A stretch of 36,434 nucleotides of DNA. Source: a virus. Position 1 is the first letter of the stretch. Each line of letters opens with the position of its first letter. Below, one piece after another: positions 4,660-16,972 of this stretch. The translations under genes were made by a program, and so were the position numbers. The stretch is taken from the IMG/VR virus record IMGVR_UViG_3300009149_000122. One strand, given 5' to 3'. The notes under the pieces were generated by a model that saw only the letters and a list, made by a program, of their open reading frames with translations, had not been told where the DNA came from and searched no databases.

Positions 4660-4744
4660 GCTGCTGTGGTGAAATGGTGAGACACGCTAGGTTGAGGGCC
4701 TAGTGGGGCTAGTCCCCGTGCTGGTTCGACTCCAGTCAGCAGCA
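4660..4744 (+). tRNA. tRNA-Leu (anticodon GAG), type II with long variable arm
   Basis: acceptor GCTGCTG/CAGCAGC, 3-bp D-stem GTG/CAC, anticodon stem CTAGG/CCTAG loop TTGAGGG, variable arm GGGG-CTAGT-CCCC, T-loop TTCGACT, A73. Confidence 0.8.
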
Positions 4745-4747
4745 TCA

Positions 4748-4822
4748 GGCTCCGTTTCCCAATTGGCAGAGGAGTCGGTTTCAGAAACCGAAATGGTGTG
4801 GGTTCGACTCCCACCGGGGCCA
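4748..4822 (+). tRNA. class-I-shaped tRNA with apparent anticodon CAG (Leu-type anticodon, no long variable arm)
   Basis: acceptor GGCTCCG/CGGGGCC, T-arm GTGGG-TTCGACT-CCCAC, only good anticodon helix TCGGT/ACCGA with loop TTCAGAA; variable region 6 nt; assignment uncertain. Confidence 0.5.
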
Positions 4823-4825
4823 CTC

Positions 4826-4854
4826 TTTACTTGACATTGTAACCAGCCTGTCTA
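4826..4854 (+). promoter_or_regulatory. sigma70-like promoter TTGACA-16-TATACT upstream of DHH gene, followed by ATCTTGTAAAACA motif
   Basis: read in sequence; same cTTGACAt box recurs at 8847, 21254, 8602. Confidence 0.45.
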
Positions 4855-4902
4855 TACTTGGGGGAAATCTTGTAAAACAGGAGTACCAAGAAAGGTATAA
4901 GT

Positions 4903-5838
4903 ATGTCAAGTACACGACCACCGCTCATTATTCATCACAAAGGGTGCAACGATGGGATTTGTGGGGCCCTGATTTTGTGGATAGGGCTGTCCGACGCAGA
5001 GTTGCGTGCCTACCACTATAACTGGGAACCCCCTACTGACGATGATCTTCGTGACCGTGACGTTTGGATGGTTGACTTCAGTTTTCCTAGGGAAACCTTG
5101 GAGCACATAAACGAGGTGGCCAATCGTCTTGTTGTGCTCGACCACCATGGAACCGCCGAAGCCAATTGTGTAGGACTTGACTTTGCTACCTTCGATATGA
5201 ATAAGTGCGGGGCCATGTTGGCTTACGAACGAATGGAAGCGGAGGGGGTCCTCGATCTATTTAGCGAGAGCAGCCGTAGTATGTTACTGCGTCTTGTGCA
5301 GTACGTGCAGGACCGTGACTTGTGGTTGTGGGAGATGGAAAACAGTAAGGCGGTAAACGCGTGGCTTGCAACTTTTCCAAAAGATCTTCCGTCTTGGGTC
5401 TGGATTCTTGACATCTTTTGTGACGCGGACGCTACGCTTATGCTGCCTCAAGTTGTGAAAGAGGGCGAGGCAATTCTACGGAGCAATAACAATCTAGTTA
5501 ACATCGTGGTTTCCCAAGCGTGGAGAGGCACCGCGCTCCCTTGGATGGGTAAGCCTCGCGTAACTGCGTGGATTGCAAACACGCCTATTTTACAGTCGGA
5601 CGTTGGGCACGCGCTCGTTGAACGTGGTGACACTGATTGTGCGGTCATGTGGCGGCGTGCTTCCGGGGGTCGGTATTTTTATAGTATTCGGTCTCGTGTA
5701 TCGGGTGGCATAGAGGGTGGAACCTTTGACACTGCGGCGCTAGCTTCTATATTTGGTGGGGGAGGGCATAAGGCGGCCTCTGGGTTTACCAGCGACCTAC
5801 CGCCATGGAAACTGTTTGAGGAGGACACTGATGAGTGA
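4903..5838 (+). CDS. DHH/DHHA1 family phosphoesterase (NrnA-like nanoRNase/pAp phosphatase)
   Basis: motifs HHKGCNDGICGA (motif I), VVLDHHG (DHH), GGGGHKAASGF (DHHA1 GGGH); ~311 aa like NrnA; AAAGGTA SD. Confidence 0.7.
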   Translation: MSSTRPPLIIHHKGCNDGICGALILWIGLSDAELRAYHYNWEPPTDDDLRDRDVWMVDFSFPRETLEHINEVANRLVVLDHHGTAEANCVGLDFATFDMNKCGAMLAYERMEAEGVLDLFSESSRSMLLRLVQYVQDRDLWLWEMENSKAVNAWLATFPKDLPSWVWILDIFCDADATLMLPQVVKEGEAILRSNNNLVNIVVSQAWRGTALPWMGKPRVTAWIANTPILQSDVGHALVERGDTDCAVMWRRASGGRYFYSIRSRVSGGIEGGTFDTAALASIFGGGGHKAASGFTSDLPPWKLFEEDTDE

Positions 5839-5883
5839 CAGTACAGTAAAAGAAGCGTACCCACGCAGTAATGAGGAAATGCT

Positions 5884-14800: not shown

Positions 14801-15181
14801 ATGTCTAGGCTAATGATGGAGTCTGAGGCTGAAGACGAGCACGACGAGCTGAAGTTCAAGCTTCAGGCGTCTACCAAAGTTAAACGCCCGAAAACTGGTG
14901 CCGAGTTGATCGCTGAAGAACGTCAACGGCAGTGCGCTGAAGAAGGCTGGACTCCAGAACATGATGCCCAACACGAAGAAGGTGAGCTCATTCGTGCCGC
15001 CCTTTGCTACGCAGACTGCGCTCCTTTAACAAAATACGTTGGTCCTCACACATGGCCCTGGGCTCCCTTATTCGACAAACGTGTGCAGCATAGTAAAAAG
15101 CGCAGGCTAGTAATCGCTGGCGCCCTCATTGCTGCGGAGCTCGACCGGTTGCAAGCCGAGGAGGCTGAGGATGGCGCCTGA
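14801..15181 (+). CDS. hypothetical protein
   Basis: AAGGAGGAGG SD before ATG 14801. Confidence 0.4.
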   Translation: MSRLMMESEAEDEHDELKFKLQASTKVKRPKTGAELIAEERQRQCAEEGWTPEHDAQHEEGELIRAALCYADCAPLTKYVGPHTWPWAPLFDKRVQHSKKRRLVIAGALIAAELDRLQAEEAEDGA

Positions 15182-15443
15182 GCCAACAGAAAAACAGCTT
15201 GCGAAAATCATGGCGGAGCACGAGGCTTGGTTAAGGGAGCACAGCCCTGATCTCGATGAGGAGTCACTTCAAGAAGAGCTAGCGTTGCTCGCCGCGATGG
15301 AGGTAACCCGGGATGTAGAGGGTGTCTACTATGTCTGCGTCTGCGGGCGTAAGCATTACGTCGAGTATACACCACCACCCCATCAGTACTATGCAGCTAG
15401 CTCTACCTGCGCTTGTGGGCATAAGGTCGTCTTTGGCGAGTAA
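15174..15443 (+). CDS. small Cys-rich zinc-binding protein
   Basis: CVCGRKH...CACGHK; GAGGCTGAGG SD. Confidence 0.35.
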   Translation, partial: APEPTEKQLAKIMAEHEAWLREHSPDLDEESLQEELALLAAMEVTRDVEGVYYVCVCGRKHYVEYTPPPHQYYAASSTCACGHKVVFGE

Positions 15444-15504
15444 CATCAAAATCATTGCCGGGAACTACGAGCTTCAGTTTTCCGCAGACTCAGTAACGAC
15501 TACG

Positions 15505-16047
15505 ATGGCCAAGACGCCAGAGGGTGTGGTCCTCAACATTGTGGCACCTACCCTTGAGCCTCTTCCCGTTTGGACACAAATTGTTATGCCCACCACGATT
15601 AGCTTTATCACCCAGTCACAGTACGAGTGGATGTCCAATTTCCATCAAGCTCCCTTTATTTACGAGGGAAAAAGTTGGTATACAGTAGAGCACGCCTTCC
15701 AAGCGGCTAAGGTGAACTTCTTTGGGGAGTGGGCAAAAAAGATCCGCGTGGCCGCGACACCAACCGAAGCGAAACATCTTGGGCGTAAGTGTCCACTACG
15801 TAAAGACTGGGAGCTTGTCAAAGTTGACATAATGCGTTCACTAGTGCAAGCTAAGCTCAAAGCACATCCTGAGCTGCAGGATAAATTACTTGCGACTAAG
15901 AACGCTCACATTGAAGAAGACTCTGCCTGGGATAAATTCTGGGGTACTGGAAAAAGTGGTCCCGGTGGAAAAGGTAAAAACATGATGGGAAAGCTCCTTA
16001 TGGAACTCCGCGAAAGCTTGCGGCGACATCGAGCTAAACATGTGTAG
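15505..16047 (+). CDS. NADAR (YbiA/DUF1768) domain ADP-ribose hydrolase-like protein
   Basis: WMSNFHQAPF..YEGKSWYTVEHAFQAAK...ATPTEAKHLGRK...RKDWE...KFWGTGKSG.GKN.MGKLLMELR matches NADAR signature; start uncertain (15505 or 15583). Confidence 0.6.
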   Translation: MAKTPEGVVLNIVAPTLEPLPVWTQIVMPTTISFITQSQYEWMSNFHQAPFIYEGKSWYTVEHAFQAAKVNFFGEWAKKIRVAATPTEAKHLGRKCPLRKDWELVKVDIMRSLVQAKLKAHPELQDKLLATKNAHIEEDSAWDKFWGTGKSGPGGKGKNMMGKLLMELRESLRRHRAKHV

Positions 16048-16309
16048 CGACTCAAACGTGCTAGAGCTTGCCGACATTGATCCCGATGCCCTAATTGCCG
16101 ACGGGCTTGATACTGCGCTTATCGGTTGGACCGATAGCTGGACGGGTAACGGACGTGCTGTTAGGGCTGTATACAGTATCAAAAAGGTACTTGAAATTTT
16201 CGTAGAACAAGGCATGGATGAGGAGGAGGCTCAGGAGTACTTTGAGTTTAACGTGGCAGGAGCTTACGTTGGTCCGCATACTCCGGTATTTGTGTATAAT
16301 TTTGATTAG
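16040..16309 (+). CDS. hypothetical acidic protein
   Basis: ORF only. Confidence 0.3.
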   Translation: MCSDSNVLELADIDPDALIADGLDTALIGWTDSWTGNGRAVRAVYSIKKVLEIFVEQGMDEEEAQEYFEFNVAGAYVGPHTPVFVYNFD

Positions 16310-16333
16310 CTGGCATGGTGGAATGGTAGACGT
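16309..16333 (+). pseudogene. 5' fragment of a Leu-type tRNA (acceptor GCTGGCA + D-arm GTG-GAATGGTAGA), truncated before anticodon arm
   Basis: near-identical to 5' end of tRNA-Leu(TAG) at 13456; runs into HNH start codon. Confidence 0.5.
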
Positions 16334-16897
16334 ATGCGTAGCATCTTAAAAGATGTAAAGAAAGTGCATGGTCCTTACGAGCGTAAGGATGGTCGTAGCC
16401 ATGTTGTGCTTGTTTATCTAAACGGGAAGAAACGCACAGTTTCTTATCCGAAGTTTCTGGTGGAGTTCGTAGTGGGAAGGGCGCTTGACCCTCATAAAGA
16501 AACCATAGATCATATCGACGACGATTTTACAAATAATAGGTGGAGTAACCTTCGAATTATTCCGAGGGGCAAGCATACTAGCGAAGACCGTGTTACCGTT
16601 GTTGAGGTGCTCACTAAGTGCGTTTGGTGTAGTAGTTTGGCAAAGAAACGACCTAACCAACTTAACCATAATGCTAAATTGGGGAAGGCTGGACCGTTTT
16701 GCACACGTAGTTGTGCCGCAAAGTATAGTAGGGAAGTACAGCTAGAGCGCAAGGAACCGTTTTCTGCGCAGCCATTTGTACCTACAGAGGAACGTTTATA
16801 TAAGAAACGAACCAAGGATGGTGGTATTTGTGTAGCTTCTTTGGTGGGTGATGGTATTTCCGAGAATGATATACTACAATATTGTAGTAAGAAATAA
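16334..16897 (+). CDS. HNH homing-type endonuclease with C-terminal zinc finger
   Basis: ETIDHIDDDFTNNRWSNLRIIPRGKH HNH motif; CVWC...CTRSC; lies between the tRNA halves. Confidence 0.7.
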   Translation: MRSILKDVKKVHGPYERKDGRSHVVLVYLNGKKRTVSYPKFLVEFVVGRALDPHKETIDHIDDDFTNNRWSNLRIIPRGKHTSEDRVTVVEVLTKCVWCSSLAKKRPNQLNHNAKLGKAGPFCTRSCAAKYSREVQLERKEPFSAQPFVPTEERLYKKRTKDGGICVASLVGDGISENDILQYCSKK

Positions 16898-16972
16898 GCT
16901 CCCTTAGCCCAATTGGCACGAGGCCTCCGACTTAAAATCGGATTGTTCCCGGTTCGAGTCCGGGAGGGAGCA
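16898..16972 (+). tRNA. class-I-shaped tRNA with anticodon TAA (Leu UUA-reading)
   Basis: acceptor GCTCCCT/AGGGAGC, anticodon stem TCCGA/TCGGA loop CTTAAAA, 5-nt variable, T-arm CCCGG-TTCGAGT-CCGGG, A73. Confidence 0.65.

Follow-up and report, generated by a model that had tools for sequence, protein, structure and literature searches.

In cyanobacteria and plastids, the tRNA-Leu(UAA) gene carries a group I intron in its anticodon loop, and phage group I introns often bear HNH genes. Endonucleases encoded in phage tRNA clusters are known to cut within tRNA-containing DNA and to be co-inherited with the adjacent tRNA genes (PMC2330249, PMC13096335), and in the tRNA-dependent lysogeny of actinobacteriophages, phage Gaia disrupts tRNA-Leu-CAA and brings its own copy (PMC10865867). 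As regards tRNA-Leu with a short variable loop (type I), the LeuRS of Streptomyces coelicolor leucylates type-I tRNA-Leu(CAA) (Fan et al. 2019, PMC6614811). [quoted passage not shown]

The locus described here lies where the genome of a large (jumbo-type) phage is rich in tRNA genes. This region is represented by IMG/VR record IMGVR_UViG_3300009149_000122, the whole 36,434 nt of which are referred to as the window. The terminase shares 26–32 % identity with the terminases of jumbo phages Motura, PaBG and Erwinia Y3, too little for a host to be inferred, and a near-identity DNA search with positions 4000–17500 gave no match to cultured close relatives. An 855-aa minus-strand ORF of a size fitting a phage LeuRS was rejected as such, i.e. 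it encodes a major-vault-protein-like protein. Pfam, NCBIfam and PDB sequence searches did not detect a Ro60/TROVE identity for a 712-aa ORF beside a Y RNA-like array, and the DHH-gene relative L007 contains no tRNAs.

Both ARAGORN and Rfam model RF00005 (gathering score 29 bits) called five tRNAs with leucine anticodons in the window, all on the plus strand and with RF00005 scores of 48.9–56.8 bits (E about 1e-7 to 1e-10). The two programs agree on the coordinates and anticodons that had been given in a preliminary description of this DNA, and neither assigns a different anticodon or isotype. The features concerned are:

4613..4642, plus strand: putative sigma-70-like promoter TTGACA-18-TAAGAT, assigned by its match to 10 of 12 consensus positions
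4660..4744, plus strand: tRNA-Leu(GAG), type II, 85 nt, variable arm GGGGCUAGUCCCC, A73, Rfam 51.5 bits
4748..4822, plus strand: tRNA-Leu(CAG), type I, 75 nt (ARAGORN adds one base), Rfam 48.9 bits
13456..13539, plus strand: tRNA-Leu(UAG), type II, intact, 84 nt, called by ARAGORN and Rfam
13898..13981, plus strand: tRNA-Leu(CAA), type II, 84 nt, Rfam 50.7 bits
16898..16972, plus strand: tRNA-Leu(UAA), type I, 75 nt, Rfam 56.8 bits

The GAG, UAG and CAA tRNAs possess a paired long variable arm, and the CAG and UAA tRNAs a short variable loop of 6 and 5 nt, respectively, together with A73, in line with the class-I shape previously noted for these two. The T loop of tRNA-Leu(CAA) is UCCGACU, i.e. 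with C55 in place of U55. Since the five anticodons are all distinct and jointly decode all six Leu codons, they form a complete, non-redundant set rather than the 'Leu redundancy' for which they had been taken, and tRNA-Leu(UAA) is the sole UUA reader in the window. Leucine is the most frequent residue (8.8 %) and its six codons are used evenly (RSCU 0.6–1.3), all of them being covered by the set, so that codon supply is a plausible role for these tRNAs. The putative promoter sits 17 nt 5' of the GAG/CAG pair.

Both short genes fall into a large family of type-I tRNA-Leu that is marked by A15:U48, A73 and the D-arm CCCAAYUGGCAGAGG, in which a 3-bp stem and a C13/A22 mismatch accompany the loop AAYUGGCAG. 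The CAG gene, which starts 3 nt past the GAG gene and does not encode CCA, shows the exact family motif CCCAATTGGCAGAGG, with a 3-bp D stem, the C13/A22 mismatch, the D loop AAUUGGCAG and the variable loop AAUGGU ending in U48. The UAA gene shows a one-base-longer variant of the motif, CCCAATTGGCACGAGG, also found in L258, with one extra base in its D loop AAUUGGCACG and the variable loop UUGUU; within the collected set of tRNAs, it is closest to other type-I tRNA-Leu(UAA) genes. Both genes contain U8, A14, A15, G18G19, U48 and A73, keep the A15:U48 Levitt pair and deviate from the 74-nt family layout, i.e. by the 6-nt variable loop and U9 in the CAG gene and by the extra D-loop base in the UAA gene. 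Among tRNAs with the exact D-arm motif, a Leu anticodon was present in 119 of 120 from IMG/VR loci and in each of the 100 from GTDB genome loci; these tRNAs all have a length of 74–78 nt. In the 126 unique family members of 74 nt, U8, A14, A15, G18, U48 and A73 are invariant, and each stem pair occurs as two to six Watson-Crick/GU types with 88–100 % pairing.

Members of the family are chromosomal in Actinomycetota, where the S. coelicolor type-I tRNA-Leu represents it biochemically (PMC6614811), and many cultured phages are annotated with them as tRNA-Leu. Phage T5, considered as a classical type-I case, was discarded, its tRNA-Leu(UAG) having 85 nt and therefore being type II. The scaffolds, which the preliminary description called unusual, are indeed so for most bacteria, but they are members of a large and conserved family. 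Without their context, there is nothing exceptional about the two short tRNAs within this already annotated, little discussed group.

Based on their sequences, both short genes appear to be true type-I tRNA-Leu, and leucine charging is predicted because the features reported for bacterial LeuRS are kept, i.e. A14-U8, A15:U48, G18G19, the 3-bp D stem and A73. Charging is not assured, given the failure of E. coli LeuRS and of one Streptomyces LeuRS on the S. coelicolor tRNA and the deviations of both genes from the family layout, among them the 6-nt variable loop. It is highly improbable, though, that another synthetase charges these class-I bodies, which would make CUG and UUA codons for a different amino acid; most other synthetases recognize their tRNAs by the anticodon and should not accept CAG or UAA. 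Such recoding could be suspected from a short variable loop, which is atypical of tRNA-Leu in most bacteria, and from a type-I tRNA-Leu that E. coli LeuRS did not charge (PMC6614811), but body and anticodon are coupled in 219 of 220 family members, A73, A15:U48 and the Leu-type D-arm are present, and both G3:U70 (Ala) and a long arm (Ser) are absent. We therefore rejected mischarging, and the replacement of a Leu gene by the UAA gene of the same anticodon, described below, likewise speaks against it.

While isotypes, anticodons and class-I shape had been recognized correctly, the preliminary description missed that the UAA gene is part of an HNH cassette within a broken class-II tRNA-Leu(UAA) gene. 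The additional features are:

16309..16331, plus strand: 5' fragment remaining from the split type-II tRNA-Leu(UAA) gene, covering its positions 1 to about 24, GCTGGCATGGTGGAATGGTAGAC
16334..16897, plus strand: HNH endonuclease ORF, 187 aa, with HNH_3 and zf-FCS, matching PHROG HNH families (E 5.7e-18)
16973..17024, plus strand: 3' fragment remaining from the split type-II tRNA-Leu(UAA) gene, from the anticodon onward, identified by aligning it locally with the type-II genes GAG, UAG and CAA

The HNH ORF is intact, has a catalytic HNH motif (PF13392, 28.6 bits, cut-off 24.8) and ends with a stop codon that directly abuts the type-I tRNA-Leu(UAA) gene, and both together are flanked by the two halves of the type-II gene. 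The first 18 nt of the 5' fragment show one mismatch against the intact UAG gene's 5' end (0 of 100 shuffles matching), and a TATAAT hexamer is located next to this fragment, at 16295–16300. The 3' fragment reads TAAAA-TCTCG-T-GGGGCTTAGTCCCC-G-TGCGGGTTCGACTCCCGC-TGTCAGT-A, and the acceptor strands of the two fragments, GCTGGCA and TGTCAGT, pair at 7 of 7 positions. About 10 nt of the type-II gene (positions 25–33) are gone; therefore, the gene is dead. A group I intron was rejected as an explanation for the inserts, since Rfam gave no match to RF00028 at E up to 1 in any of them and positions 25–33 of the split gene in the window are absent. On balance, the type-I UAA gene is probably the cargo of an HNH homing cassette that broke the type-II tRNA-Leu(UAA) gene and supplied a substitute with the same anticodon. 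Near the CAG type-I gene, neither an HNH gene nor a class-II remnant was found.

The short genes could also be decaying pseudogenes without a role, which we consider very unlikely. Both stray slightly from the family layout, and damaged tRNA-like genes occur elsewhere in the window, one with a 6-nt anticodon loop (8926–8997) and one with an unpaired acceptor top (9799–9872). Nevertheless, both form full cloverleaves scoring 49–57 bits with every universal base present, the CAG gene belongs to a promoter-led pair, and, with the type-II copy destroyed, nothing but the UAA gene remains to read UUA.

The same layout recurs in other genomes. L008, a related phage with flanking proteins 57–74 % identical, carries a homologous HNH gene (52 % identical) and a type-I tRNA-Leu(UAG) within a split type-II UAG gene. 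This gene is intact in the window, i.e. the insertion is a presence/absence polymorphism, and the variable arm GGGAGAAATCCC of the intact gene is identical in the 3' remnant of L008. At the UAA site of L008, there is a 3' remnant alone and no cassette, and L249 harbours a UAA version of the HNH and type-I tRNA cassette in a split type-II gene. In the unrelated contig L081, an HNH gene of another family (PF01844-like), on the opposite strand, lies together with a type-I UAA tRNA within a split type-II Leu gene.

Homologues of the HNH protein of the window numbered 133. Ten distinct contexts of this HNH family were compared, namely those in the window and L008 plus eight of homologues; in 7 of them, the HNH gene adjoins a type-I tRNA-Leu, which starts no more than 6 nt after the HNH stop codon in six and lies 52 nt upstream in the other. 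Across 126 viral loci, the nearest tRNA is type-I Leu for 7 of the 12 tRNA-adjacent ORFs with an HNH motif (17 % expected, 3.4-fold, p = 0.0016), a statistic that is only roughly controlled since the loci were gathered via the type-I Leu motif. Between close cultured relatives, the HNH gene beside the type-I Leu gene is present in Klebsiella K18PH07C1 and absent in Proteus Mydo. The HNH proteins of the window and its syntenic relatives (59–68 %) have diverged on par with those of neighbouring genes, which resembles vertical inheritance more than recent mobility.

These data also bear on codon supply as the only explanation, i.e. a Leu top-up for a phage whose codon usage would differ from that of its host, in which the short scaffold is neutral and tolerated by LeuRS and the HNH neighbour is incidental. 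Besides the codon usage reported above, HNH genes litter phage tRNA clusters, 5 of the 12 tRNA-adjacent ORFs adjoining tRNAs other than type-I Leu, with further examples in the T5 cluster and L256. As far as the CAG gene and the three type-II genes are concerned, codon supply is compatible with a homing cassette at the UAA site. As the sole account it is rather doubtful, however, because it accounts neither for the 3.4-fold enrichment nor for the three independent layouts in which type-I genes for UAA or UAG sit exactly within the wreck of a type-II gene sharing their anticodon.

Returning to the homing cassette, the free-standing element (HNH ORF followed by tRNA) would have inserted into a resident type-II tRNA-Leu(UAA) gene, in the region of the anticodon loop, and inactivated that gene. 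The type-I UAA gene would then not have arisen in place. We propose that the HNH enzyme would cut type-II tRNA-Leu genes of cassette-free genomes, and that repair off a cassette-bearing genome would copy HNH and type-I tRNA genes into the break. The type-I gene would be immune to the enzyme because it lacks the target sequence, and its tRNA would restore decoding, so that the cassette would be tolerated. The old tRNA promoter probably drives an HNH-tRNA transcript, and tRNA processing would set the 3' end of the HNH mRNA. It is tempting to speculate, with some reservation, that type-I tRNA-Leu genes in general spread among phages as replacement cargo of HNH homing endonucleases attacking type-II genes. 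Chromosomal actinobacterial type-I Leu genes are all without HNH, as are many in phage arrays, such as the three in the array of phiEa21-4; therefore, the scaffold is older than the cassettes, which alone do not account for it.

Another conceivable driver is defence evasion, in which Leu tRNAs without the long variable arm would escape effectors that recognize or cut it, or Leu-specific anticodon nucleases (e.g. of VapC type) as the preliminary description suggested, and thereby sustain translation once the type-II tRNA-Leu of the host is inactivated. AbiEii appears to favour class II tRNAs (bioRxiv 10.64898/2026.01.19.700257), NADAR, DHH and ARPP-1 genes in the tRNA region of the window are candidates for counter-defence, and in phiEa21-4 and Mydo, all Leu tRNAs are short and the Ser and Tyr tRNAs long-armed, a pattern in agreement with LeuRS alone, among the synthetases for class II tRNAs, being able to dispense with the arm. 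Yet the phage retains three long-armed Leu tRNAs, both type-I genes have ordinary anticodon loops, and the literature examined contained no defence system shown to inactivate tRNA-Leu via its variable arm, which makes this explanation unlikely.

If the homing-cassette reading holds, the element acts like a mobile intron, but repairs the damage by substituting a target-free tRNA instead of by splicing. [quoted passage not shown] It would explain why many phages have Leu tRNAs without a long variable arm, including phages of enterobacteria whose LeuRS reportedly charges type-II tRNA-Leu only; such a LeuRS would be predicted to charge the phage type-I tRNA-Leu as well, which raises the question of LeuRS specificity in hosts without type-I tRNA-Leu. 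The cassettes could also find use as natural pairs of a nuclease specific for tRNA genes and a tRNA allele resistant to it.

The literature searched, the coverage of which is incomplete, yielded no paper that deals with type-I tRNA-Leu of phages or with replacement cassettes of HNH and tRNA genes, and no description of an HNH gene interrupting a tRNA gene together with a substitute tRNA. As regards the tRNA scaffold, the nearest likeness is the S. coelicolor tRNA-Leu(CAA), with a Leu anticodon on a scaffold with a 5-nt variable loop alongside type-II tRNA-Leu (PMC6614811), and the retrieved actinobacterial genes and those of the window have the D-arm CCCAAUUGGCAGAGG, U48 and A73 in common. In contrast to S. 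coelicolor type I, the genes of the window are phage-borne, have CAG and UAA anticodons and differ by a variable loop of 6 nt or one additional base in the D loop, and one of them is HNH-linked within a broken type-II gene. Animal mitochondrial tRNA-Leu (type I) also combines a short variable loop with Leu identity, but has another architecture and its own mitochondrial LeuRS.

The mobile part of the locus resembles SegB of T4/T6 (PMC2330249, PMC13096335) and the HNH genes hegA-hegH annotated in T5 in that an endonuclease gene lies amid phage tRNA genes. SegB, however, is a GIY-YIG enzyme encoded between intact tRNA genes, whereas HNH and tRNA in the window interrupt and kill a tRNA gene and supply a structurally different tRNA with the same anticodon. 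Like the cyanobacterial and plastid tRNA-Leu(UAA) intron, the cassette is a mobile insert at the anticodon loop, but Rfam finds no group I fold and function would be regained by substitution; splicing could not restore the type-II gene, given the roughly 10 nt that are missing. Finally, tRNA-dependent lysogeny shares with the cassette that a mobile element breaks a tRNA gene and compensates with its own copy (PMC10865867), with the difference that an integrase inserts a whole prophage into a host chromosome there, and a 0.64-kb HNH cassette resides in a phage genome here.

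The window is phage DNA, with a large terminase at 27656-29938, a portal protein at 30384-32756 and a G+C content of around 51 %. The terminase shares only 26-32 % identity with those of the jumbo phages Motura, PaBG and Erwinia Y3, and no cultured phage with a close match at the DNA level was found. ARAGORN calls nine tRNA genes, all on the plus strand, of which five carry Leu anticodons.

Leucine tRNA genes of the window, each found by both ARAGORN and Rfam
4660-4744, plus strand: tRNA-Leu(GAG), 84-85 nt class, paired long variable arm
4748-4822/3, plus strand: tRNA-Leu(CAG), 75 nt, variable loop AAUGGU, A73
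13456-13539, plus strand: tRNA-Leu(UAG), gene anticodon TAG, 84-85 nt class, paired long variable arm
13898-13981, plus strand: tRNA-Leu(CAA), 84-85 nt class, paired long variable arm
16898-16972, plus strand: tRNA-Leu(UAA), gene anticodon TAA, 75 nt, variable loop UUGUU, A73

The preliminary description had placed the same five genes here and had singled out CAG and TAA as short-armed with A73; both programs agree with it, the Rfam tRNA model matching all five at 48.9-56.8 bits (gathering score 29 bits). The five anticodons are mutually distinct and jointly decode all six Leu codons. Since Leu is the commonest residue of the window ORFs (8.8 %) and its six codons are evenly used (RSCU 0.6-1.3 in 43 ORFs), a full set of Leu tRNAs is sensible. 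No LeuRS gene is encoded in the window. In the T loop of the long-armed (type-II) tRNA-Leu(CAA), i.e. UCCGACU, C55 replaces the near-universal U55. A gap of 3 nt separates the short (type-I) CAG gene from the preceding type-II GAG gene. A promoter-like TTGACA-18-TAAGAT site precedes the pair, and neither an HNH gene nor a type-II remnant was found near the CAG gene. In the related viral locus L008, the type-I tRNA-Leu(CAG) and tRNA-Leu(GAG) genes, at 6261-6337 and 6400-6476, are close paralogues with nearly identical acceptor and T arms, which suggests a duplication followed by an anticodon change; since the anticodon is not read by LeuRS, such a change is possible.

Among the other tRNA genes, one at 2467-2542 with the anticodon CAU (Met or Ile2 type) lies 60 nt from a tRNA-Ile at 2602-2673 whose anticodon is the rare UAU. 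The tRNA at 8926-8997 (Rfam 58.6 bits), preceded by a perfect promoter-like TTGACA-16-TATAAT site at 8848-8875, has a 6-nt anticodon loop, UUUGGU; in its L008 homologue (7591-7663), a normal tRNA-Thr(AGU), this loop has 7 nt, and therefore the window copy has lost one loop base. Further tRNAs with 6-nt loops occur in Erwinia phage phiEa21-4 (L004, 525-597), Proteus phage Mydo (L005, 2645-2719) and a Klebsiella phage (L260, 1145-1219). The tRNA-Thr(CGU) at 9799-9872 (Rfam 52.7 bits), with three unpaired positions atop its acceptor stem, lies just upstream of a conserved 712-aa ORF (10151-12289); a tRNA-like element without an ARAGORN call occupies the same place in L008 (~7940-8010). Upstream of this ORF, which has a weak VWA match and no detectable similarity to Ro60/TROVE, 9195-9700 holds three tandem Y RNA-like (YrlA) units (~9195-9330, 9385-9520 and 9584-9699). 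Each unit comprises a T arm, an acceptor-like hairpin (CTTCCCC/GGGGAAG), a D arm and the closing-helix motifs GAGGACTT...CACTACCTC; a CAGCGCACGGCGCTG hairpin stands between units. Rfam matches YrlA at 9584-9699 with 42.4 bits (E 1e-7), under the gathering score of 69, and an Rfam 'tRNA' match at 9257-9321 is part of the first unit and not a tRNA. A similar array lies at about 7720-8050 in L008. The only large minus-strand gene of the window, an 855-aa ORF at 18561-21128, matches the major-vault-protein shoulder domain PF11978 (E 7.8e-25) as well as the Vault_3 repeat and SPFH/Band 7, with homologues in the loci L251 (same position, 65 % identical) and L125 (40 %).

In both short Leu tRNAs, the D-arm differs from the ordinary class-I form and is close to the one found in tRNA-Leu: its stem is 3 bp long, C13 and A22 are mismatched, the loop reads AAUUGGCA(C)G, and A14 and A15 are present. 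The variable loop of both terminates in U48. The exact D-arm motif CCCAATTGGCAGAGG gathered a family set of at least 120 loci from IMG/VR. Among the matches listed, 119 of 120 motif-bearing viral tRNAs carry a Leu anticodon, all six Leu anticodon types are present and every tRNA is 74-78 nt long. The same motif, searched in one bacterial genome per species, returned at least 100 motif-bearing tRNAs; among those listed, Leu anticodons and lengths of 74-78 nt were found in 100 of 100, mostly as solitary chromosomal genes of Actinomycetota, including Mycobacterium, Nocardia, Gordonia, Rhodococcus, Corynebacterium and Arthrobacter. U8, A14, A15, G18, U48 and A73 are invariant in 126 unique 74-nt members taken from the viral loci, in which each stem pair occurs as two to six pair types and is 88-100 % paired. 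U48 and A73 lie outside the search motif, and therefore their invariance is not a collection artefact. Compared with the usual 74-nt layout, the CAG gene has a 6-nt variable loop and U9, and the UAA gene one additional D-loop base.

The same short genes are annotated as tRNA-Leu in cultured phages, i.e. in phiEa21-4 (three tRNA-Leu, all short), Mydo, Klebsiella Mydovirus phages, Rhodococcus phage Peregrin, and Gordonia and Mycobacterium phages; the Ser and Tyr tRNAs of phiEa21-4 and Mydo retain long arms. The LeuRS of S. coelicolor charges its own type-I tRNA-Leu(CAA), depending on A14-U8 and variable-loop length, while E. coli LeuRS and one Streptomyces LeuRS do not charge it (Fan et al., PMC6614811), and the tRNA-Leu of M. 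tuberculosis are a mixture of long- and short-looped forms (PMC11541572). Judged by their sequences, the CAG and UAA short genes are members of this known type-I tRNA-Leu family, and a non-Leu identity is very unlikely. Their scaffolds, previously called unusual, do have the class-I shape but are not unique, given the large type-I family in phages and Actinomycetota.

The short UAA gene lies within the remains of another tRNA gene. The ORF at 16334-16897 (187 aa) encodes an HNH endonuclease (PHROG E 5.7e-18; Pfam HNH_3 over cut-off, and zf-FCS), the stop codon of which abuts base 1 of the type-I tRNA-Leu(UAA). Directly 3' of this tRNA, TAAAATCTCGTGGGGCTTAGTCCCCGTGCGGGTTCGACTCCCGCTGTCAGTA at 16973-17024 reads as the 3' part of a type-II tRNA-Leu(UAA), i.e. 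anticodon, 3' strand of the anticodon stem, long variable arm, T arm, acceptor 3' strand and discriminator A. Directly 5' of the HNH ORF stands GCTGGCATGGTGGAATGGTAGAC at 16309-16331, the first 18 nt of which agree with the start of the intact UAG gene at all but one position (0 matches in 100 shuffles). The acceptor halves GCTGGCA and TGTCAGT pair at seven of seven positions, and the fragments, once joined, can be aligned over the length of the intact type-II genes, lacking ~10 nt at positions 25-33. Therefore, a type-II tRNA-Leu(UAA) gene was split and killed by a 0.64 kb insert, which consists of an HNH gene and a type-I tRNA-Leu of the same anticodon. A TATAAT hexamer precedes the start of the broken gene by 8 nt, and the old tRNA promoter may now drive the cassette.

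This layout recurs in other viral loci. In L008 (IMG/VR 3300031578_000165), with flanking proteins 57-74 % identical to those of the window, a type-I tRNA-Leu(UAG) begins 5 nt after an HNH homologue (52 % identical), and GCTGACGTGGTGTAATGGTAGTCACGCTGGGTT and TAGTATTTGGGAGAAATCCCGTGGGAGTTCGAATCTCCCCGTCAGCA border the pair on its two sides. The acceptor strands of this split gene pair 7/7, and its variable arm, GGGAGAAATCCC, is the same as in the intact UAG gene of the window. The flanks are thus a type-II UAG gene, i.e. a like cassette sits in a different Leu gene with a matching cargo anticodon; at ~3240-3290, L008 keeps only a 3' UAA remnant, with no cassette there. The locus L249 repeats the UAA layout (fragments at 2408-2421 and 3072-3120) with an HNH 68 % identical to that of the window, the called ORF starting at A7-U8-G9 of the broken tRNA and having seven additional N-terminal codons. 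The halves of the dead UAA gene remain complementary across lineages (GCTGGCA/TGTCAGT in the window, GCCCGCA/TGCGGGT in L249), with compensatory differences at pairs 3-70 and 4-69. The 5' fragments of the broken genes are trimmed to different lengths (33, 23 and 14 nt), whereas the 3' junction falls at the anticodon in every case. Two unrelated viral contigs also have split type-II Leu genes. In L081, two complete halves are separated by a type-I UAA tRNA and an HNH of another family (PF01844-like) that lies on the opposite strand; in L076 (1253-2183), a UAG gene is split by an HNH of this second, PF01844-like family, seemingly frameshifted (ORFs 1358-1582 and 1552-1887), and no substitute tRNA was found in the insert. 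None of these inserts has an Rfam match to a group I intron.

Ten distinct contexts of the HNH family of the window were inspected (the window, L008 and eight homologue contexts): a type-I tRNA-Leu overlaps the HNH stop codon or follows it within 6 nt in six and lies 52 nt upstream in one, one further context having other tRNAs and two having none. Across the 126 viral loci, 12 of 19 HNH-motif ORFs lie within 100 nt of a tRNA, and the nearest is type-I Leu for seven of these 12, compared with 17 % of the tRNAs there (p = 0.0016), an enrichment only roughly controlled as the loci were gathered via the type-I Leu motif. In a cultured Klebsiella Mydovirus, an HNH-motif ORF that is absent from Mydo lies 58 nt downstream of the type-I tRNA-Leu(UAA).

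The most parsimonious interpretation is that of a free-standing homing-endonuclease cassette targeting type-II tRNA-Leu genes, for which we infer cleavage specificity, homing and leucylation. The HNH would target these genes near the anticodon loop, and the type-I tRNA-Leu would be carried along as a substitute without the target sequence. Alternatively, loss of the variable arm might serve to escape effectors that use it. This idea has better precedent than the replacement of tRNA-Leu pools depleted by an anticodon nuclease, as proposed in the preliminary description: MenT3 uses the long loop of tRNA-Ser (PMC11541572) and AbiEii seemingly prefers class II tRNAs (bioRxiv 10.64898/2026.01.19.700257); however, the literature searched yielded no arm-using effector acting on tRNA-Leu, and the phage retains three long-armed Leu tRNAs. 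Accessory genes are interleaved with the tRNA region at 2786-4075, 4903-5838, 5884-6405, 12600-13328 and 15322-16047, listed as a GNAT-like protein, a DHH phosphoesterase, an exonuclease/RNase H-like protein, an ARPP-1 domain protein and a NADAR domain protein (domain match E 4e-32), and several of them could have counter-defence functions.

As to the history of the homing-endonuclease cassette, the sequence evidence points both ways. The HNH is as diverged as the neighbouring genes in syntenic relatives, which counts against recent mobility, whereas the complementary halves with their compensatory differences between the window and L249 would fit independent insertions into already diverged alleles.

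In the literature searched, no description was found of a cassette in which an HNH gene and a type-I tRNA sit within a broken type-II gene. As with SegB in the tRNA region of T4/T6 (PMC2330249, PMC13096335) and the HNH genes within the tRNA cluster of T5, the window has an endonuclease gene among phage tRNA genes; in contrast to both, a tRNA gene has here been broken and replaced.
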